Source of the DNA: Candidatus Jordarchaeia archaeon
Lineage (GTDB): Archaea > Asgardarchaeota > Jordiarchaeia > Jordiarchaeales > Jordiarchaeaceae
Length of the DNA: 19,925 bases
Direction: 5' to 3'
Assembly: GCA_029856435.1 (NCBI GenBank)
Contig: JAHQXB010000095.1
Coordinates: forward strand, 1 to 19,925
The notes beneath the pieces are model-generated. The model saw only the letters and a program-made list of their open reading frames with translations. It was not told where the DNA came from and did not search any database. Made by a program: the position numbers and the translations under genes. How positions within the stretch are numbered: position 1 is the stretch's first letter; each line of letters starts with the position of its first letter. Of this stretch, positions 4,121-19,764 are shown piece by piece.

Positions 4121-4483
4121 TTAGAAAATGATTACGGCTTCGCCATGTTTTAGAATTATTTTTACCAATTCGTCTTCTTCAATGGGAGTGATACCTTTTA
4201 TTATTCTTGTTTCAGGTATTTTTCTCTCCGCGAGAGATTTTTTGTGAACATACAACTCGGACTCTGGGAGAAGGGTATAGATCAAATCTTCCACACTAGG
4301 CATAGATATTTTTTCGGGGCTTTGATTTGAAATCGTAGCATATACTCCATCGCCCATAAATAGTAAAATGCATCTCAACCCACTGTTAAGGCAAGCGACA
4401 GCCACATATAGTCCACTAAAACAGTCTTCAAAGCCATAGGGCGCTTTCGTGATTATTAGCAGTACCGTGTTAATTTTAACCAC
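4121..4483 (-). CDS. dsrF: DsrF/TusC-family sulfur relay subunit (start possibly ATT at 4474)
   Basis: LLIITKAPYG, LLFMGDGVY, LYVHKKSLAER and a terminal VIIF. Adjacent to dsrE and dsrH homologues. Confidence 0.8.
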   Translation of the reverse strand: MVKINTVLLIITKAPYGFEDCFSGLYVAVACLNSGLRCILLFMGDGVYATISNQSPEKISMPSVEDLIYTLLPESELYVHKKSLAERKIPETRIIKGITPIEEDELVKIILKHGEAVIIF

Positions 4484-4488
4484 CTTCT

Positions 4489-4869
4489 CTAAAGGGCCAA
4501 CACCCTATCGCTGTTTTTGAGCCAGTGACCCAAGTCACGCAGATTAGCTATGTGAACCCCACTAACATATTGGCTGGTGGGATAAATTCCATCATTTTCC
4601 TCCCCCTCAACATAACCCCTAGCTCCCGCACACCGCGAGCAGGATTTTATTTTCGCTCCCTTCTGAGCTAGTTCACTGAGTTTTTCACCAACATTAGGAA
4701 AATATTTTGGGCTTTGCCCCTTCTTAGCAGAGTGAACCGACTCCATATAAAGAAAAATGTTAACATTGTAACCCTTTTCTAGAGCCTTCGCAGCTATTAA
4801 GAGACCAATATCCACTCTTTGAGAAGCATAAGGACCATGATATAGAACTAAGGTCAATGTCTTACTCAT
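4489..4869 (-). CDS. dsrE: DsrE/TusD-family sulfurtransferase subunit with CxxC
   Basis: GPYASQ, IFLYMESV, KSCSRCAGARG (persulfide-Cys position) and SDRVLAL. ATG at 4869 lies 6 nt after a GGTG SD. Confidence 0.9.
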   Translation of the reverse strand: MSKTLTLVLYHGPYASQRVDIGLLIAAKALEKGYNVNIFLYMESVHSAKKGQSPKYFPNVGEKLSELAQKGAKIKSCSRCAGARGYVEGEENDGIYPTSQYVSGVHIANLRDLGHWLKNSDRVLAL

Positions 4870-4878
4870 CACAATCAC

Positions 4879-5202
4879 CTAGAAGCATAGAATTCTATCC
4901 GCACTCTCCATAATATCAACTATCATCTTACCAATCAAATCATATTGACACCTCAACCTCTTTGAAAGTAAATCCTCCTGAACGCCCCGCGCCTCCAAAT
5001 CCTCCTTACTCGCAAAAACTTGAATACGCTCAGAATCAATAGTTTCCAGAGTCATTCCTCTCATCCCACAGTATACTCCATCACCAATCAAGTATACTGT
5101 AACATTAGCATCAGTTCTAATAATTTCATTTATTATGTCGAATGCTTTCGCTACCCGCTCCGAAAGTGGGGGATCAATTATGATAGAAACAACTTTCAAC
5201 AA
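4879..5202 (-). CDS. dsrH: DsrH/TusB-family sulfur relay subunit
   Basis: YLIGDGVY, FASKEDLEARGV and a terminal ADRILCF. TTG start chosen after the GGTGG SD; the ORF track starts at 5220. Confidence 0.8.
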   Translation of the reverse strand: MLKVVSIIIDPPLSERVAKAFDIINEIIRTDANVTVYLIGDGVYCGMRGMTLETIDSERIQVFASKEDLEARGVQEDLLSKRLRCQYDLIGKMIVDIMESADRILCF

Positions 5203-5357
5203 GACACTACCACCACACACTTAACTGTTCAATTTCTTTTATCCTTATTCCAACAAATCTAAAAATATCTAAGCTAACTTGCTTTATGCTCCTCTTTTTC
5301 TGACTTTAAGGTCACCTATATTAGTAAACATTCAACTTTTAAGTTTGATATGTATGT

Positions 5358-7843: not shown

Positions 7844-8992
7844 CTACAGGTGTTCTTTAATGGTTTTTACTGCGTCTTCTGTGCTGGTTTTGAAGCCAAG
7901 ATCTTTTAGACTTTCGCTTAGTGCAAAGATTGCATGTATTGCTTTGTGGGGGTAGGCGTTGTAGCCCATATGTCCCAAGCGTATTACTTTTCCGCGTAGA
8001 TCTCCCCAGTTGCCAGCAATCATTACTCCATATTTTTGAAGGATATGGTTTCTGAGCTTTTCATCTTCTATTCCTTTAGGGATTTTTATGGCTGTAACGG
8101 TATCTGAACAGTAGTCTTCTTCTTTGGGGTATAATTCGAGACCCATGGCTTTAACTGCTTGTCTGACACTGTTTGCCACTTTTTGGTGTCGCTCATATAC
8201 TTTTTCGATTTTTTCTTCCAAAATAATTTGGCAAGCTTCATCTAGAGCGTATAGTAGGGAAGCCGCATGAGTATATGGGAAAATTCTGTTTTGGAACCAG
8301 TCTCTTTTCCAGGATAAAAGGTTTAGGTAGAAGCTTTTTATCCTACTTTTTTGATCTCTTCTCTCCATTTTCTCCCACGCCTTCTTGCTTACAGAAATTA
8401 TTCCGATGCCTGGTGGGGCGCTGATGCATTTTTGGGAGCCTACAATGTTTATGTCTACGTGCCACTTGTCGGTTTCTACAGGTACTCCAGCAACGCTACT
8501 AACTGCGTCGGTTACGAGTATTATTCCGTATTCGTTGCAGATTTTGCCTATTTCTTTGAGGGGGTTTAGGGTTCCGCTGGGGGTTTCGCAGTGAACCATT
8601 GTGGCGACTTCTATATTTTTTTCTTTTTCGAGAGCCCTCTCTACCTCTTCAGGTTTCACTATTTCATCGTAGGGAAATTTGACGATTACCGGTTTTCCTC
8701 CATACATTTGAACAAAATTTGCGAAGCCCTCTCCATAAATACCGGAAGCTATTGTGAGGACTTTTTCATCCGGACTCACAAGACTTGCTACAGCGGCCTC
8801 AAGACCGATAATTGCCTCTCCAGAGTGTAGTATAACATCATTGTCGGTCTTCATAATTTTCTTAATCTTTTCACATAGGGAATCATAAAAGCTGTAAAAG
8901 TCGGGATCCAGGTCTGGATTTTGAAGGGGACGGGCCATTGCCTGAAGAACGCGTGGGTGAACCTCTGTGGGTCCAGGGGTAAACATTAACAC
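7844..8992 (-). CDS. Class V PLP aminotransferase (alanine-glyoxylate/serine-pyruvate type)
   Basis: MFTPGPTEV, VHCETPSG, DAVSS, GSQKCISAPPG (PLP Lys) and IRLGHMG. GTG at 8992 follows a GAGGTGG SD; the ORF track starts at 9019. Confidence 0.93.
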   Translation of the reverse strand: MLMFTPGPTEVHPRVLQAMARPLQNPDLDPDFYSFYDSLCEKIKKIMKTDNDVILHSGEAIIGLEAAVASLVSPDEKVLTIASGIYGEGFANFVQMYGGKPVIVKFPYDEIVKPEEVERALEKEKNIEVATMVHCETPSGTLNPLKEIGKICNEYGIILVTDAVSSVAGVPVETDKWHVDINIVGSQKCISAPPGIGIISVSKKAWEKMERRDQKSRIKSFYLNLLSWKRDWFQNRIFPYTHAASLLYALDEACQIILEEKIEKVYERHQKVANSVRQAVKAMGLELYPKEEDYCSDTVTAIKIPKGIEDEKLRNHILQKYGVMIAGNWGDLRGKVIRLGHMGYNAYPHKAIHAIFALSESLKDLGFKTSTEDAVKTIKEHL

Positions 8993-9174
8993 GTTTAACC
9001 ACCTCTCAATGAGAATCAATTTTAGATGTGTTAATATAAGAATGTTTCTTAAAATCTTCCCCCAAACTAAAAAAAGAACTTTAAGGATGAATTTTCCAGT
9101 TGTGCCCTAATAGTTTGGAGATTTGTGATTTTTAGAGTTATTTGCATGGGTAGATACTCATTTTTGGGGGGAAT

Positions 9175-10425
9175 TTAGTGTATTTTTGCTCCTTCGCCTA
9201 TTGCGGATATCCACCCTTGGGTTGCTCCTGCGGCTATTCCTGCTTCTAAAACTTTTTCGCATTTTTCAGAGTCTACGAGTGAGATTAGGCTACCTCCCAT
9301 TCCTGCTCCGGAAATCTTTGTTCCGTATGCTCCCGCTTGTAGTGTGGCGTCTCTTATCTTTTCCAGTTTTGTTAGGCTCACTTTGTATAGGTCTCTTAGA
9401 AGCTCGTGTTGATAGTTCATTATTTCGCCCAGAATCTGGAGGTCGTGTGATTTGTTTTTTATTCTCTGCCATAGAGGACTCATTGACGGCCCCTTTTTTG
9501 GGGGTTTTGGCCTTTTGCCTTTTAGGATTTTTAAAGCGATTTCTGTGGATTTTTGCATTCTGAGGGTGAAACGTATTCTATCAGCTACATCATCGCGCAA
9601 CAGTTTTAGGTATTCTTCTAGTTCCTCCTCGCTTATTTTTTCCCATTCTGGCTCATCAAACCGGTAACCCAATTTGCTTTTAATTTTGTCTGGAAGCGTG
9701 CTACACTCCATAAGGGTTTTTAGGCCCTCGCTTATTTCCTTTTGTCTTACTGGGTGAATTTCTGCGGTGGAGTGTTTGATTCCAGAATTAAGGATTACAA
9801 AGGTGAGGTTTCTTGCAGGAAGCTTTTCCACACGGATGGGAAACTTGCAATCTAGTTTTATTATCCCCCCAAATGCTGAGCCATACTGATCCAGACGCCC
9901 ACAGGGTATACCTAACTCTGCATTCTCCGCTTGGTAAGCTATTTCGGCTAAATCTCCCTCCCTGTATTTTAGTTTGAAGGCCTCATTCAGTAGTGTGGCG
10001 AAGGCCACTTCTAGGGCGGCGCTGCTTGCTAATCCCGACGCTATGGGAATCTGGCTCTTAACATAGATGCGCATTCCTCTGAGTTTCTTTGAGAGGCCTC
10101 TTTTTTCCAAGATTTTCACTATGGCTCTGAAGTAGTTTCCGAACCATCCCTTACCAAGATACTCTATACTACCTATTGAGAACCTGTCTTGAAACTCCTC
10201 TCCTGCCGCCTGAAGGTCGAGTGAATTTACTTCGAAAACATCATCGTTCCTAAATTCTCCGCACATATAGGTTCTCAGGTTTAGTGCCACAGGCACCACG
10301 GGTAATCCTTTGTAGTCTTGATGAGTGTTTAGGAAGTCCGCTCTTGCTGGTGCAGAGGCTATAATGTTTGATCCGCTTTTTGTGAAGGGGATTTCCAAAA
10401 TTTTGGGAGAGTTTATATTTTTCAT
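9175..10425 (-). CDS. GHMP-family sugar kinase, galactokinase-like with altered sugar-binding motif
   Basis: PIASGLASSAA (ATP loop), CGRLDQY and GTKISGAGMGG are present. The N-terminal APARADFLNTHQDY replaces the GalK APGRVNLIGEHTDY motif. Confidence 0.85.
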   Translation of the reverse strand: MKNINSPKILEIPFTKSGSNIIASAPARADFLNTHQDYKGLPVVPVALNLRTYMCGEFRNDDVFEVNSLDLQAAGEEFQDRFSIGSIEYLGKGWFGNYFRAIVKILEKRGLSKKLRGMRIYVKSQIPIASGLASSAALEVAFATLLNEAFKLKYREGDLAEIAYQAENAELGIPCGRLDQYGSAFGGIIKLDCKFPIRVEKLPARNLTFVILNSGIKHSTAEIHPVRQKEISEGLKTLMECSTLPDKIKSKLGYRFDEPEWEKISEEELEEYLKLLRDDVADRIRFTLRMQKSTEIALKILKGKRPKPPKKGPSMSPLWQRIKNKSHDLQILGEIMNYQHELLRDLYKVSLTKLEKIRDATLQAGAYGTKISGAGMGGSLISLVDSEKCEKVLEAGIAAGATQGWISAIGEGAKIH

Positions 10426-10449
10426 TTAGGATTTCATTCCCCATTTTGT

Positions 10450-11283
10450 TCATTCTCTTTCGTAAGACAGATAAATTTTTTTCAGTAGCAGGGCGTCGAA
10501 CTCAATATTGGGACTCTCCGAGATCACTACTCCTTTTATCCGGTAGTCCCTCCAAGATTTTACCAGCTCCACATAATTTATGTCAGACTCCTCTAAAACA
10601 GTGTGTCGCAGCTCTCCCTTGGAGGAATACTCTATTCCCGATATGTGAATGTGCATGTTGTCAAGAATTTCACGTCCCAAACCTTCCTCTAACATGTTGA
10701 GGGTCAGTTCAAAGTGTTCGTACCTTCGACACATGCCGTTTGTGCGAGCGTTGAGATGAGCAAAATCAACATTGGGTAGGATTTGCTCTACCTCTTGGCT
10801 CAATTTTATTATCTCATTGAGAGTTCCAAACTGGCTTTTCTTACCAGTAGTTTCAGGCCTTATCCAAATATTGTTTCCTTCGTCTTGAAGAATCCTAACT
10901 ATTTGGGAAAGATGTTCCTTAACATTCTTGTAAACAAGCTCTGGTTTCATTCCTCCATAGTATGCTGGATGAAAGGTTATGGATTTGCCCCCCGCCTTCT
11001 TAGCTATTCTAGCGGTTCTAAGTATTCTCTCAATGCTTGCTTGAACTGTTTCCTTCCGATAAGAATTTAGATTTATATAGTAGGGTCCGTGCGCTGTGAG
11101 GTGGACATTTTCATTTTTGGATACCTCATTTATTTTTTGGGCTAGAGCTTCACCCATTTTTACTCCATAAACGAATTCTAGCTCCATAGCGTCTAGCCCC
11201 AGTTCTCTCACCCTTTTAATACCACCAATTGAGTTCCTCACCGGACTGGTGATAGGTGTACCTGCCGTGCCAAAGAGCAACAT
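10450..11283 (-). CDS. nfo: Endonuclease IV (AP endonuclease family 2)
   Basis: AHGPYYINLNS, FHPAY, RPETTGKKSQFG, DFAH and HIHISGIE metal-ligand motifs. Confidence 0.92.
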   Translation of the reverse strand: MLLFGTAGTPITSPVRNSIGGIKRVRELGLDAMELEFVYGVKMGEALAQKINEVSKNENVHLTAHGPYYINLNSYRKETVQASIERILRTARIAKKAGGKSITFHPAYYGGMKPELVYKNVKEHLSQIVRILQDEGNNIWIRPETTGKKSQFGTLNEIIKLSQEVEQILPNVDFAHLNARTNGMCRRYEHFELTLNMLEEGLGREILDNMHIHISGIEYSSKGELRHTVLEESDINYVELVKSWRDYRIKGVVISESPNIEFDALLLKKIYLSYERE

Positions 11284-11502
11284 TGCTAATCAGCTTTCAT
11301 AACTTTATTCGTCTCGGAATAATGTGTTTTATTGAAATTATAGTTTTTAAGTGCTTGTTAAAAGTTTGGACATCAAAAAGATTAAGAAGCACACACTTAA
11401 AGTTTATATTTGCCTTTAAACATATAGAAAAGCAAGCATTAAAATCTTTAATTTAGTTTTTTAAACACTTTTGTAAGGTGAAAGTGAGCCTGTAAAAGCG
11501 AA

Positions 11503-12645
11503 ATGCTTGGATGTGATATATTGTTTGAGAACAGAGGCGTTTGTTTAGCCATTTTCGATGAAGAAGCTGGCCCCATTAGTGTCTACTTTAAGGGAATCGA
11601 TAAGGCAGTCGCCAACAAAATCGCCCTAAAGAGTATGATTAGTTCACTTTCCCTAAGTCAACAGGTGGATGAGGGGGAATCCATAATACCACTCATAGAA
11701 GAGCAGAAGAGCGCCTTTGTTTTTTATTTCGCCATAAAGGATGAGAAAGCTAGAGGGGGAGTGAGAATCGGCACACTTTCCTTCGTAGTTGGGAGAGAGG
11801 ATAGCGAATTACTTTATCGCTTCGCCCCGATCCTTTCTGAGCATTCCAAGCGAGTAGTGGAGGATGTTAAAAAATATTACGTTTACAGACAGCCCATCCC
11901 GCAGGTTTTAATAAATAGTGTGAACAGTATGCTCTCAATTAAAGACTTTGAAAGAGCTTTTCTGCCAGTTAGTTTTAAAGAATACCTCATTCGAAGCTAT
12001 CTTTCTAGGCAAACCACTTTTCACCGATCAATTATTGAGAAAACAAGTAGCGTCTCCCGCTATATGGATGTTTTAGGCCAAAAAATCGACCTTGTGGGAA
12101 GAGATAGAGAACAAAATATCGTTTGGACGCTCATCACCTATGACTCCACCAAAATGGGTGGAGAGGAAAAACGCAACTTACTCCTGTACATAAATAAGCT
12201 ACAAGAAAGCATTCCCTCTCTGGAGGTGATATTTGTACTAAATGAGGTGGGGTTGCGAAGGGGAGGCACATTTGACGAAAAAATTGTAGAAAAGACTACC
12301 CAGATCCACAGGACAAGCGAAGTCGACGGAAAAGAATTTGACCTATACGGAGCTGACAATGAAGGAAATATTGTTTGGGCGCTTTTATCCAAAAACTTTC
12401 TAGTCATGAAGGAGGAGGAGCTAGACGAATTGAACCAAAAAATATTCAAACTCAAGAGGACACACCCCTCAATGGAGGTGCTCTTTGTATTAGCTGAGGT
12501 ACTTAGATCAACAATAATTCAACCACCAAAACCGGATTTATCTGGTAAACCTGAGGGTATAAGGAAAATTTTGGGAGCAAAAAGGGAATATGAAGAATTA
12601 ATGGAGGCTCTTAGAAAGAAAGGAAAGAGTAGAGAAGAAACGTGA
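11503..12645 (+). CDS. uDENN/longin-domain protein (folliculin/SMCR8-like) with two duplicated C-terminal alpha/beta domains
   Basis: The N-terminal FDEEAGP and FYFAIKDEKARGGVR match the FD-x3-GP and D-x-x-A-R-G-x-x-R patterns of FLCN/SMCR8-type longins. Internal repeat at aa 177-249 and 261-333. Confidence 0.7.
   Translation: MLGCDILFENRGVCLAIFDEEAGPISVYFKGIDKAVANKIALKSMISSLSLSQQVDEGESIIPLIEEQKSAFVFYFAIKDEKARGGVRIGTLSFVVGREDSELLYRFAPILSEHSKRVVEDVKKYYVYRQPIPQVLINSVNSMLSIKDFERAFLPVSFKEYLIRSYLSRQTTFHRSIIEKTSSVSRYMDVLGQKIDLVGRDREQNIVWTLITYDSTKMGGEEKRNLLLYINKLQESIPSLEVIFVLNEVGLRRGGTFDEKIVEKTTQIHRTSEVDGKEFDLYGADNEGNIVWALLSKNFLVMKEEELDELNQKIFKLKRTHPSMEVLFVLAEVLRSTIIQPPKPDLSGKPEGIRKILGAKREYEELMEALRKKGKSREET
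12031..12501 (+). repeat. Intragenic tandem domain duplication: two 73-aa units at 12031-12249 and 12283-12501
   Basis: Hand alignment is ungapped with 33 of 73 residues identical, at an offset of 252 nt. Confidence 0.9.
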
Positions 12646-12702: not shown

Positions 12703-13623
12703 GTGGACATTAATAAAAATCTCCTCACCTACTCAATAGTATTCCTCACCATAGAAGCCTTAGGACTATTAGGCACATTCTTCATCTCGTGGCAATCCGT
12801 TTACTATTTATACTCGAAGAGTCTAATATGCGAGAATATTTACGGAATTTATACTACTTTTCAGTATTTCTCCTACTCCCCTGAGACCCTACCCCCACTT
12901 TTGACCTACTGGCTACTCACAAGAGCCACCGCCCACCCCATACTTTGGATAACACTTCCGGTGTATATAGCCCTAAAGGGGATTTTGCTAGTTTTGAAAA
13001 GGTTTAATTTAGCCCGTATTTCTGTATTCACGCCATTACCTTTTTTGGCGGAAAAATTTTTTGCAAACTTGAACCTTTCTGAGGCTCAGCTTGTGCTACT
13101 GTGGCCTTCAAATATCGTCGTTTACCCTCAACAGGGCTTGGGAGGAATCGCGTTACTACTAATACTCTTTTTGGGAATATACGGAGTTAATTTCTTTGAA
13201 AACGCCTTAGTGTTTCCCATAGTTAGAAAAATAGCAAAGCTCTTGAAGGAGAGACCAGAACTGGAAATTTCCGAAATCGCCAAAGAAAGCGGATTCGGCT
13301 CAAAACAGTTTTACAACTACCTCTCTAAAGCCGTATATGAAGGAATAATACTGGCAGTTTTAACCCCCACAGAATTGGTGGCTTACGATAGCCCCAAGGC
13401 GCAGGAACTAATAATAGAGGCCTATATGAAAATACTCCAAAAAAACGAAAGAATAAACATCAACGATTTACGCCTAGTTATGAGATACTCGAAAATATGG
13501 TTCCCACCACAAAGGGAAGCGATTCTAGATATACTAAAAAAAGCGCAGGAAGAAGGCAGACTCCCAGCATTCATCATCGACAAGGAAATCGTAAAACAGC
13601 CAGAAACAGGTTTGGTGTATTAG
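12703..13623 (+). CDS. Multi-pass membrane protein with C-terminal tandem winged-helix (PCI/ESCRT-II/DDRGK-like) region
   Basis: Several hydrophobic segments in aa ~8-165, then LEISEIAKESG...LSKAVYEGIILAVL and ININDL...LKKAQEEGRLPAFI (two HTH-plus-wing patterns). Confidence 0.65.
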   Translation: MDINKNLLTYSIVFLTIEALGLLGTFFISWQSVYYLYSKSLICENIYGIYTTFQYFSYSPETLPPLLTYWLLTRATAHPILWITLPVYIALKGILLVLKRFNLARISVFTPLPFLAEKFFANLNLSEAQLVLLWPSNIVVYPQQGLGGIALLLILFLGIYGVNFFENALVFPIVRKIAKLLKERPELEISEIAKESGFGSKQFYNYLSKAVYEGIILAVLTPTELVAYDSPKAQELIIEAYMKILQKNERININDLRLVMRYSKIWFPPQREAILDILKKAQEEGRLPAFIIDKEIVKQPETGLVY

Positions 13624-13655: not shown

Positions 13656-14387
13656 TCAAATATAGTAGTTGTTGTTTTCTGGGAAAATTTTGTTTATTGA
13701 AAGCATAAGTTTTTCGGCGGTGTCCACTTTTCCGGCACTAAGATAGCTCTGGAAAGCCCAGACATATTTATCCCTCGCCTCGTTCATTTCCCCCAACTGC
13801 TTGAAGAGCTCCCCACTTTTAAGATACATCGAAGCCGCTTCCTCATGCCGCTTCATAGAGTCTCCGTAGAGAATACCTAAGAGTCCCAGCACCACCGCCT
13901 GCTGGTACTTGTCACCAGACTCTTCACATAGTTTAAGGGCCTTTAAATAGCATTCTTCGGCAGATTGGTAATCAGCCTGCTGCCTATATGATACCCCCGC
14001 CCGCCAATAGTTCTCAGCCGCACTTCTAAAAGAGTTCAACTTCACGTAAATCTCCGCAGCAGCCACATAGCTTTCCGCCGCTTTCTCATATTTCTCCTGA
14101 ACGAAATAGTTGAACCCCAAATGGCTACAGTAGAATGAAAAACGCTCATCTTTTATACCAAGTTTCTCCAGTATAGCTACAGCCCTTGATAGGCACTCTG
14201 AAGCCTCAACACTTCTTTGAACCAATTCCAACAAGACCCCCGCTTTTGCATAGGCCTCGGCACACTTCTCCAAATCACTTGTTTGAAATTTTTCCGCTGC
14301 AGATATGTAAAGTTCAATAGCTTCCCCATATTCTCCAGAATTATGCTTATTCTCCGCAGCGGAAAAAAGCTCCTCTGCACTCTTCAA
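13656..14387 (-). CDS. TPR-repeat protein, SNAP (Sec17/alpha-SNAP)-like
   Basis: Repeated helical units: YGEAIELYISAAEKF, YEKAAESYVAAAEIY, AAENYWRAG, AEECYLKAL, HEEAASMYLKSGELF. TTG at 14387 follows GAGGCGGTGG; the ORF track starts at 14429. Confidence 0.75.
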   Translation of the reverse strand: MKSAEELFSAAENKHNSGEYGEAIELYISAAEKFQTSDLEKCAEAYAKAGVLLELVQRSVEASECLSRAVAILEKLGIKDERFSFYCSHLGFNYFVQEKYEKAAESYVAAAEIYVKLNSFRSAAENYWRAGVSYRQQADYQSAEECYLKALKLCEESGDKYQQAVVLGLLGILYGDSMKRHEEAASMYLKSGELFKQLGEMNEARDKYVWAFQSYLSAGKVDTAEKLMLSINKIFPENNNYYI

Positions 14388-14797
14388 CTGCCACCGCCTC
14401 TTTTCACACAAATAGAAAACAGTTTTCACTAAATTGCTTTCCTATTTTGAAACTAATCTAATAAATTAATGTAATTCACAAAGAACATAACGGTGAGCGA
14501 CAAATAATATGTACACCTAACGCCATAGAGGGAAAATGGAATCTTTCAAACAAGAAAAATAAAAGCAATTTCAACTGAAAACCAAAAACTACGAAGTATA
14601 ACAACCTTCTAATAGACGAAAACACTAGAGAACATATTAGGTTAAGAATAAAAACAGGTAAACCTATTTACATTCCAAGGAATAGCTTTATTGTAATTTA
14701 TTGTTTAGGGGGTTTAAGTTTACCATTTTGATACAAAACTTTTAAATCTGAATCCAGAATTAATCCATTCAAACATTTTTACCATCCGGTGAGATTT

Positions 14798-17855: not shown

Positions 17856-18105
17856 AATGAGCACATCCACACTTCTAGTAGCCTTAATATCCAGAATCTG
17901 ATTTTTTGTATTTTTGCTGGAAAAGAAACATTGACACCTCCACGTGTAAAGTCGGGACTTTCTCGCCAATAATTCTTGTAATGAGGAGCAAAGAAGGGAG
18001 CTATTAGGTTAGTGGATTTGCATTTCCATTTTTTAGGAATTTAACAGTTTTTAGAGTATATTTAAATCTGCTAATTATTCAAATTATATCTGATGGGTGT
18101 TAGTT

Positions 18106-19764
18106 TTGTCCGACATTGATGTTCTCAGAGAATTGGTGGAAAAGGGCGAAAATTTCCGCGTGGAATTTAAACGTTTTCTAAAATCTGCAGACCTTTCCCC
18201 AAAAAGAAAGCAGAAGTTAATAGCACAGTTGAAGTATATAACAAGTGAGGGTGAGGGAAACCTCTTTGTGGGAATAGAAGACTTAAACGGTGAAAAGTGG
18301 GAGGTATTTGGGTTAACAGAGGAACAGGCTGAGATTTCAGACTTTGTGCTAAGGAGAATCTGCCAAGAAGCAGATTTAACCATAATCGAGAAAAACACCT
18401 TTCACACCGGCAGGGGAATTGTGGTAAGGTATGTTCTGGCAAAAACACCCTCAGAAGAATTACAGGATCTAATCTCTGTGGGATTTGCGGGAAGAGTTAA
18501 CGCTGGTAAAAGCACTCTCATAGGGGTTCTCCTAGGAAACAAGCTAGACGACGGAAAGGGATCAGCAAGAGCCTGCCTACTTAGACACCCCCAGGAACTG
18601 GAAAAAGGGCAGACAGCAGACCTCCACTTCGCATTCGTAGGACTAGACCACAACAACAAAATAACCCCCTTAGAAAATCCATTGGATCCACAGGAAAGAG
18701 CCAGAGTACTGGAGCAGTCAAAAAGAATAATCAATTTTGTAGACGCCCCCGGACACTCAGAATATGTAAAAACCATGATTAGAGCCATTCTGGGTTCCGA
18801 TTCCCAATATGGTGCAATACTCATCCCAGCCCGAGACGAGTATAAACTCATGCTATCAGAAGAGATGCGGACAGGAGTCTGGCGCTTAGACGACATTACA
18901 AGAGAACACCTATTGCTCATGGCCAGTCAAGAAACACCATTCATGGTTTTAATCTCAAAAGTGGACCAGGCAAAGCCCACCGAACTGGAAAAGGTAAGAG
19001 AAGTGGTTCGCCAAACCATCAAAAACATTGGCCGGCTACCCCTATTCGTCAGAGACGAGGAAGACATCAAAATTATACAAAAGGAGATTACACACAGAAT
19101 AATCGTCCCCATAGTGGAAATAAGCAGCGTCACCAGCAATGGCTTAAACCTCCTCATAAACATACTAGCCAACCTACCCTCACGCATAACTCAGGAATCA
19201 CTCACAAAACCAGCACTAGCCTACATAGACAAGATTTACCTAGGACTGCCAGGAACAAACGTGGTAGTCACGGGGACCGTCAAGCAGGGAATATTCAAAC
19301 CCGGACAAAGAGTGAAAATAGGCCCAGACGAAAACGCACACTTTTTCGAGGGAAAAATCTCCACAGTAGAGGTCTTCCGGGAACGCGTCCAGCGCGTCAA
19401 AGCAGGAGACATATTCGGCTTCGACATCAAACGCGTAGACCCAAAGAAATTGAGAAGAGGCCAAATCATAGCAGACATGGACTTTGAATCCCAAGCCTGC
19501 AGGCTATTTGAAGCCAACATTGTAGTAACAAGACACCCCGCAAAAATCTCCGTAGGCTACTCACCCGTACTCCAATCCAACACCATCCAACAAACCGTAA
19601 TCTTTGAAGAAATAGAAGGCCGCAACTACCTAGTAGTCGGAGACTTTGCAAAAGTCAAACTGAGACTAAAATACTCCCCAGAATTCCTAAGAGTGGGAGA
19701 CAGAATCCTCACCAGAGAAGGAACAACAAGAACAATCGGACGCGTAACAAAAATCCTAGAATAA
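18106..19764 (+). CDS. GTPBP1/GTPBP2-family translational GTPase (archaeal type)
   Basis: N-terminal GENFRVEFK...QLKY...GEGNLFVGIED domain, G1 GRVNAGKST, G3 DAPGH, G4 SKVD, G5 SSVT, and EF-Tu-like domains II (VVTGTVKQG) and III. TTG at 18106 lies 6 nt after GGTG; the ORF track starts at 18097. Confidence 0.9.
   Translation: MSDIDVLRELVEKGENFRVEFKRFLKSADLSPKRKQKLIAQLKYITSEGEGNLFVGIEDLNGEKWEVFGLTEEQAEISDFVLRRICQEADLTIIEKNTFHTGRGIVVRYVLAKTPSEELQDLISVGFAGRVNAGKSTLIGVLLGNKLDDGKGSARACLLRHPQELEKGQTADLHFAFVGLDHNNKITPLENPLDPQERARVLEQSKRIINFVDAPGHSEYVKTMIRAILGSDSQYGAILIPARDEYKLMLSEEMRTGVWRLDDITREHLLLMASQETPFMVLISKVDQAKPTELEKVREVVRQTIKNIGRLPLFVRDEEDIKIIQKEITHRIIVPIVEISSVTSNGLNLLINILANLPSRITQESLTKPALAYIDKIYLGLPGTNVVVTGTVKQGIFKPGQRVKIGPDENAHFFEGKISTVEVFRERVQRVKAGDIFGFDIKRVDPKKLRRGQIIADMDFESQACRLFEANIVVTRHPAKISVGYSPVLQSNTIQQTVIFEEIEGRNYLVVGDFAKVKLRLKYSPEFLRVGDRILTREGTTRTIGRVTKILE

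Follow-up and report, generated by a model that had tools for sequence, protein, structure and literature searches.

How the longin domain became a GTPase-activating protein (GAP) is an evolutionary question, and it is raised here by a gene at positions 11503-12645 (+) of a 19,925-nucleotide contig of a Candidatus Jordarchaeia archaeon (JAHQXB010000095.1), the whole of which is referred to below as the window. mTORC1 signalling and the function of lysosomes are controlled by folliculin (FLCN), GATOR1 and C9orf72-SMCR8, which have links to Birt-Hogg-Dubé syndrome, epilepsy and amyotrophic lateral sclerosis/frontotemporal dementia. Does the archaeal gene encode a longin domain of this type, with an arginine finger, and what accompanies that domain in the protein? 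The gene, delimited from the open reading frame (ORF) list and from its orthologues and hereafter called the longin-tandem gene, encodes 380 residues plus a stop, comprising a longin domain, a helical linker, two repeat modules and a basic C-terminal helix. We read its product as the Jordarchaeia member of the Asgard FLCN/SMCR8/NPRL2-type "GAP longin" family, acting as a putative GAP subunit, and assign this reading a probability of roughly 0.55.

The ORF is a real, conserved gene, and a chance ORF or a chance motif is excluded because orthologues exist at 60-83% identity and every genome of the class returns a full-length match. The former are 19 relatives reported by a word-indexed search of 5.8 billion proteins, the named ones all originating from Jordarchaeaceae, Jordarchaeum or Freyarchaeota (Asgard) metagenome bins, while the latter come from a six-frame search of Jordarchaeia genomes (11/11). 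A second genome family of the class possesses proteins that are ~30% identical and retain both the GP motif and the TARGG segment described below. The two peptide stretches quoted in an earlier note on this DNA, AIFDEEAGP and FVFYFAIKDEKARGGVRIGTLSFVV, are both found in the translation of the ORF (11503-12645, +). The orthologues start with MFE(K/N)RG, and an in-frame TTG codon at 11521-11523 (+) yields the N-terminus MFENRG, as in the orthologues, the genome match also starting at 11521. The actual start may therefore lie 6 codons downstream, in which case the residue numbers used here shift by -6. Three orthologue matches, L006 (genome G008), L007 (G009) and L014 (G006), each contain one in-frame stop (TAG, TAG and TAA, respectively; open frames of 379-396 residues), which may be the terminal stop counted within the match. 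An antisense ORF of 105 residues inside the longin-tandem gene (12138-12455) has no support and was disregarded.

Fold and family of the N-terminal domain

The AlphaFold2 model, built on an alignment of 20 sequences, has a mean predicted local distance difference test score (pLDDT) of 76 and a predicted template modelling score (pTM) of 0.61. It displays a longin core at residues 12-125 (11536-11877, +), delimited by the secondary structure of the model, the VIA-align Z scores and the Pfam match to residues 44-125. The core is arranged as strand-strand-helix-strand-strand-strand-helix (E12-19, E23-30, H34-52, E58-64, E69-79, E87-97, H98-125), which is the canonical longin order. A VIA-align search against all representatives (48,161 chains) returned as best match the longin domain of a Lokiarchaeota Roadblock-Longin protein (8yqg; Z 15.6, root-mean-square deviation 2.8, 144 of 157 residues aligned), followed by the longin of K. 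lactis Lst4 (Z 13.0), chain 6nzd_H of the FLCN-FNIP2-Rag-Ragulator complex (Z 12.4, 20% identity), C9orf72-SMCR8 (Z 12.3), GATOR1 (Z 10.5), the SEA complex (Z 10.2) and FNIP2 (Z 10.0). Ranks 1-7 (Z 15.6-10.0) are thus occupied by the Loki longin and by longins of GAP complexes, with a modest margin over generic longins such as AP5 sigma, sedlin, VAMP7, Ykt6 and SRX (Z 8-9.7), and the Foldseek ranking agrees. The earlier note had proposed a longin fold, and both the canonical order of elements in the model and the nearest solved structures, namely FLCN/FNIP/Lst4, C9orf72-SMCR8 and NPRL chains, bear this out. Likewise, the interval that it had taken as the longin part (11503-11960, residues 1-152) agrees with the model range 4-153 that aligns to solved longin domains.

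At the sequence level, the sole Pfam match of the protein is PF11704, Folliculin (residues 44-125, E 1.4e-3, 18.9 bits). All 20 orthologues match this family, with a best E value of 1e-6. The orthologue profile collected 92 proteins at E ≤1e-3 among 1.84 billion cluster representatives (HMMER), nearly all of which match the longin part only, and those with a name belong to Heimdallarchaeota, Hodarchaeota or the "Asgard group". Several proteins of this wider family lie at or near the Pfam cut-off, and one of them, P0024, reaches 33.6 bits with PF11704. Searches of the PDB sequences with the single sequence and with the orthologue profile (HMMER) found nothing. A profile of 50 wider-family proteins matched human SMCR8 twice: the C-terminal parts of the Asgard relatives align with SMCR8 cDENN residues 699-756, and the profile segment ...ktarg... 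aligns with SMCR8 ...LEARGFVR..., that is with E145-A146-R147-G148. Among the PDB sequences, 8yqg is again the single significant match to the family profiles (E 8e-5); this protein was crystallised as a dimer according to the title of its entry. Unlike the Jordarchaeia protein, the 8yqg longin carries no arginine at the column of R84 in the profile alignments (loop ...NLKEPEKT...) and is fused to Roadblock instead of a tandem module.

Taken with the fold, these matches make family-level homology to the FLCN/SMCR8/NPRL2-type longins highly probable. With human FLCN, SMCR8 and NPRL2, whose partners are FNIP1/2, C9orf72 and NPRL3, respectively, the protein shares the longin fold (Z 10-12.4), the GP motif, an ARGxxR loop aligned to SMCR8 R147 and a Pfam Folliculin match that lies below the cut-off in the window copy. 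It differs from them in having neither a DENN module nor an N-terminal zinc-binding region, and the identity is ~10-20%. Could the motif have arisen by coincidence in an unrelated α/β protein, or could the ORF not be a genuine gene? The PF11704 score of the window copy does fall under the gathering threshold. However, the ORF has a conserved counterpart in each of the 11 class genomes, all 20 orthologues match PF11704 and the Z score against a solved Asgard longin reaches 15.6, so that this explanation is effectively refuted.

The GP motif and the candidate arginine finger

Two marks define the published Asgard longins of this class. Section 2.4 of PMC12290439 (Traffic 2025) introduces the GP motif, and sections 2.4 and 2.6 describe Asgard "Folliculin/SMCR8 longin domain-containing" proteins that carry the GP motif and an arginine finger in the same arrangement, with the proposal that such longins could act as GAPs on the Arf-related or Rag GTPases of Asgard archaea. 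The central idea of the earlier note, an Asgard longin of the FLCN/SMCR8 GAP type, is already contained in that work. The Jordarchaeia protein resembles these longins in its fold, in the GP at the turn between strands 1 and 2, in the arginine in the loop between strands 4 and 5, and in its Asgard origin. Its GP motif is G23-P24 (11569-11574, +), within FDEEAGP, and opens strand 2 (E23-30). The candidate arginine finger is R84, located in the segment ARGGVR (residues 83-88; 11749-11766, +), in the 7-residue loop that joins strand 4 (E69-79) to strand 5 (E87-97). Codon 84 is indeed AGA at 11752-11754, and R84 does sit on the β-hairpin loop of the AlphaFold2 model where it had been expected, as judged by secondary structure. 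All 20 aligned orthologues have G85, and G23, P24, A83, R84 and R88 are each retained in at least 90% of them.

The equivalence of R84 with SMCR8 R147, also put forward in the earlier note, is recovered by the family-profile alignment described above, in a low-scoring stretch, and no other comparison connects R84 to a known finger at the level of residues. By the Pfam match and the literature, R84 would also correspond to FLCN R164. Among the 98 longin domains of the 92 wider-family representatives, the glycine is present in 87, the proline in 69 and the GP pair in 66, and 29 keep both the arginine and the GP. Since R84 and G23-P24 are both present, the longin-tandem protein belongs to the subset with both marks.

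If the protein acts as a GAP subunit, its N-terminal longin domain would most likely dimerise, either with itself or with a longin-only paralogue of 167 residues encoded in the same genome. The longin dimer would then dock on a small GTPase, probably a Rag/Gtr1-like or an Arf-like one, and R84, projecting from the strand 4-5 loop beside G23-P24, would enter the nucleotide pocket and speed GTP hydrolysis. The tandem C-terminal module takes the place of the eukaryotic DENN and is probably a non-catalytic scaffold, binding domain or sensor, and the basic C-terminal helix may add further contacts. The source genome encodes three Gtr1/RagA-type GTPases (304-409 residues), about 22 Arf/Ras-like GTPases and 14 Roadblock proteins.

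Alternatively, the longin domain could be a non-catalytic platform or a GEF-type (guanine nucleotide exchange factor) regulator, with R84 and R88 as structural or binding residues. Most longin domains are platforms or GEFs (PMC10933270), the arginine is missing from 60 of the 98 related longin domains, with the GP motif and D19 far more widespread, and the longin gene shows no genomic linkage to any GTPase. Against this, both genome families of the class retain the arginine, Gly85 and R88, the ARGxxR pattern is as in the SMCR8 sequence, and the nearest structures are longins of GAP complexes and not those of TRAPP, adaptins or SNAREs. Loss of the arginine in part of the family is, moreover, also seen in the eukaryotic non-catalytic partners. 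We regard a platform or GEF-type role as the main rival reading, possible if doubtful.

Several observations weigh against a GAP subunit. The PF11704 score of the window copy (18.9 bits) is below the curated cut-off of 23.3, the SMCR8 longin alignment is weak (4.3 bits), and the HMMER family profiles never reached the FLCN and NPRL2 chains in the PDB. The arginine is kept in only 38 of the 98 wider-family longin domains, and methionine replaces R84 in one of the 20 orthologues. The eukaryotic GAP longins are obligate heterodimers in which one subunit lacks the arginine, whereas all longin paralogues here keep it. Lastly, neither a GTPase nor a Roadblock gene adjoins the longin gene or its paralogues. 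The "catalytically competent" GAP for Rag/Arf-type GTPases of the earlier note is an inference, and its description of the domain as "ancestor-like" is not supported: its C-terminal module is limited to one Asgard class, and the arginine occurs in only the 38 of 98 domains just mentioned.

The longin domain itself is of the published class and adds little to the published idea of such Asgard domains; what is new is the architecture, with a class-specific tandem module in DENN's place. The value of the protein is practical, as a compact and well-conserved test system for longin GAP chemistry that offers a 380-residue form, the 167-residue longin-only paralogue and only three Rag-like GTPases in the genome. 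GAP activity dependent on R84, if shown, would count as direct evidence for a longin GAP chemistry older than the eukaryotes.

A tandem module in the place of DENN

The longin core is followed by a conserved helical linker (residues 126-177; 11878-12033, +), identified from the alignment and the AlphaFold2 model, with invariant F158, E160, L162, I163, F173 and H174. Downstream of it, the model, a self-comparison and the alignment delineate C-terminal repeat 1 (residues 178-252; 12034-12258, +) and its duplicate, repeat 2 (residues 264-336; 12292-12510, +), which are 45% identical over 73 residues (E 1e-18). In the model, each unit has a leading helix followed by three strands, a further helix and a fourth strand. 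Across 20 repeat units from 10 genes of the class, G22, W31, E64, F67, L69 and E71 are invariant. The protein ends with a Lys/Arg/Glu-rich helix (residues 351-379; 12553-12639, +) that is modelled with low confidence. In the orthologue clusters P0019 and P0020 (alignment columns about 345-400), this basic helix is replaced by a tail rich in cysteines (CxxC ... CPFC) and reminiscent of a zinc ribbon; the source name of one of the two is RpoP-like.

Neither the longin-tandem protein nor its orthologues return a DENN match in Pfam. The earlier note had described an unrelated duplicated domain instead of a cDENN/dDENN module, and the internal duplication and the missing DENN match agree with this. 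The reference protein of the literature is heimdallarchaeial, and a profile search links the longin-tandem protein to Heimdallarchaeota and other Asgard relatives. Asgard relatives of ~360-390 residues possess an SMCR8-like cDENN, in contrast to the tandem module of the Jordarchaeia protein. FLCN-like longin-DENN proteins have been reported in Heimdallarchaea, as have NPRL2-like longins fused to many domains in Asgard, most of these architectures being lineage-specific (Liu et al., bioRxiv 10.1101/2020.10.19.343400). In the literature searched on longins in Jordarchaeia, we found no description of a longin combined with a tandem module. The isolated repeats have no Pfam match, NCBIfam returned no match, and a profile of the repeat unit retrieved nothing from the PDB and no relatives outside the longin-tandem family in the 5.8-billion-protein set, longer lengths included. 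As far as these comparisons indicate, the duplication is specific to Jordarchaeia/Freyarchaeota. As the C-terminal module is restricted to a single Asgard class, the architecture looks specific to this lineage, and the protein offers an example of a DENN half replaced by an unrelated module.

What fold does the repeat adopt? When folded alone, the C-terminal half reached a pLDDT of 57, worse than in the full-length run, with repeat 1 as the usable part, so that fold searches of this half are based mainly on repeat 1. VIA-align lists for repeat 1 mostly nuclease-fold proteins (I-Bth0305I, Bax1, Exo5, Vsr and tRNA-splicing endonuclease; Z 4-5.7), and its Foldseek matches are at E 0.01 or weaker, including NucS/EndoMS (probability 0.93, E 0.04). 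Pfam NucS_C is reported at E 0.025 in two of the 20 orthologues, and the Atlas features point to PDDEXK families at 0.82. The repeat topology fits a PD-(D/E)xK core (helix, three strands, helix, strand), with weak structural matches only. The C-terminal modules might accordingly be restriction-endonuclease-like, with nucleic-acid binding or cutting as the main job of the protein and the longin as a regulatory add-on. The nuclease-fold signals agree with one another, but all of them fall below the levels taken as reliable (VIA-align Z 8, Atlas 0.9), and the model of the C-terminal half is the poor one just mentioned. The catalytic D...(D/E)xK signature is not found either: strand 3 has no acidic-x-Lys, the repeat invariants (G, W, E, F, L and E) include no (D/E)xK on that strand, and the aspartate has gone from repeat 2 in one genome family. 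As the module has no Pfam match in isolation and its profile finds it only in the longin-tandem family, we judge a nuclease as the main function to be very improbable. Instead, we read the tandem module as an inactive scaffold, possibly nuclease-derived or novel, that is confined to Jordarchaeia and is not a DENN.

In a bolder proposal, the tandem module would be a new domain for sensing a ligand or a partner; it would have replaced DENN and would link a nutrient signal, by way of R84, to a Rag-like GTPase. Together with the short arginine-bearing paralogue, the protein would then form a minimal prokaryotic longin GAP devoid of an arginine-less partner. We hold this to be unlikely; if true, it would provide a tractable model for the origin of folliculin- and GATOR1-type nutrient signalling.

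Paralogues and gene neighbourhood

The longin-only paralogue of 167 residues is encoded on another contig of the same genome (C82; L002 1489-1992, -). It keeps FDEDFGP and DEKARGGER, ends with a Lys-rich tail, and is divergent from a KaiC/GvpD P-loop ATPase gene (L002 2471-3490, +; PF07088 E 1e-13, PF06745 E 4e-12). A third copy, on contig C21 (L003 1486-2034, -), covers profile positions 25-142 only and is devoid of strands 1-2 and of the GP region. It has an unrelated Arg/Lys/Pro-rich N-terminus, overlaps an ORF of 208 residues and is probably a decaying duplicate. In a related complete genome, three longin genes lie in tandem, two of them full-length and one short, all with the ARG motif (L015, G006:C1:631000-650000, about 8100-11336), and the window holds a single full-length copy at the place syntenic to this array.

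The neighbours of the longin-tandem gene in the window are housekeeping genes, encoding a GHMP galactokinase-like kinase, a xylose-isomerase-like TIM barrel, IMP dehydrogenase and TYW2. The galactokinase gene adjoins the longin gene in all four contexts inspected, two per genome family (window 9175-10425, -; L016 5700-8059; L017 5830-8135). In the second genome family, a frame of 326-350 residues is present between the two, directly upstream of the longin gene, in the same orientation and separated from it by 31 and 115 nucleotides; inspected by eye, its sequence looks like a galactose-1-phosphate uridylyltransferase.

Starting 57 nucleotides downstream of the longin-tandem gene, and preceded by a GGAAGG Shine-Dalgarno-like site, an ORF at 12703-13623 (+) encodes a membrane protein of 306 residues that has no Pfam or NCBIfam match. 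Its homologues are present in nine of the 11 class genomes and adjoin the longin gene within the genus only. The following gene (13656-14429, -), convergent with that of the membrane protein and conserved in place within the genus, encodes a tetratricopeptide repeat (TPR) protein assigned to the soluble NSF attachment protein family (PF14938 SNAP, E 2e-15, residues 14-179), with a weak MIT match. An "island" of longin, membrane-protein and TPR genes as a class-wide unit was considered and rejected, because the homologue of the membrane protein sits elsewhere in the other genome family and the genes are linked within the genus only.

Further away in the window, the ORF at 18097-19764 (+) encodes an EF-Tu-type translational GTPase of 555 residues with an N-terminal extension of ~125 residues before its G domain (PF00009 on residues 125-359). 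At the other end (696-2824, -, and 4121-5220, -), there are two adjacent LplA-type lipoate ligase paralogues, one of them devoid of the C-terminal domain, and a DsrE/DsrE/DsrH-like trio.

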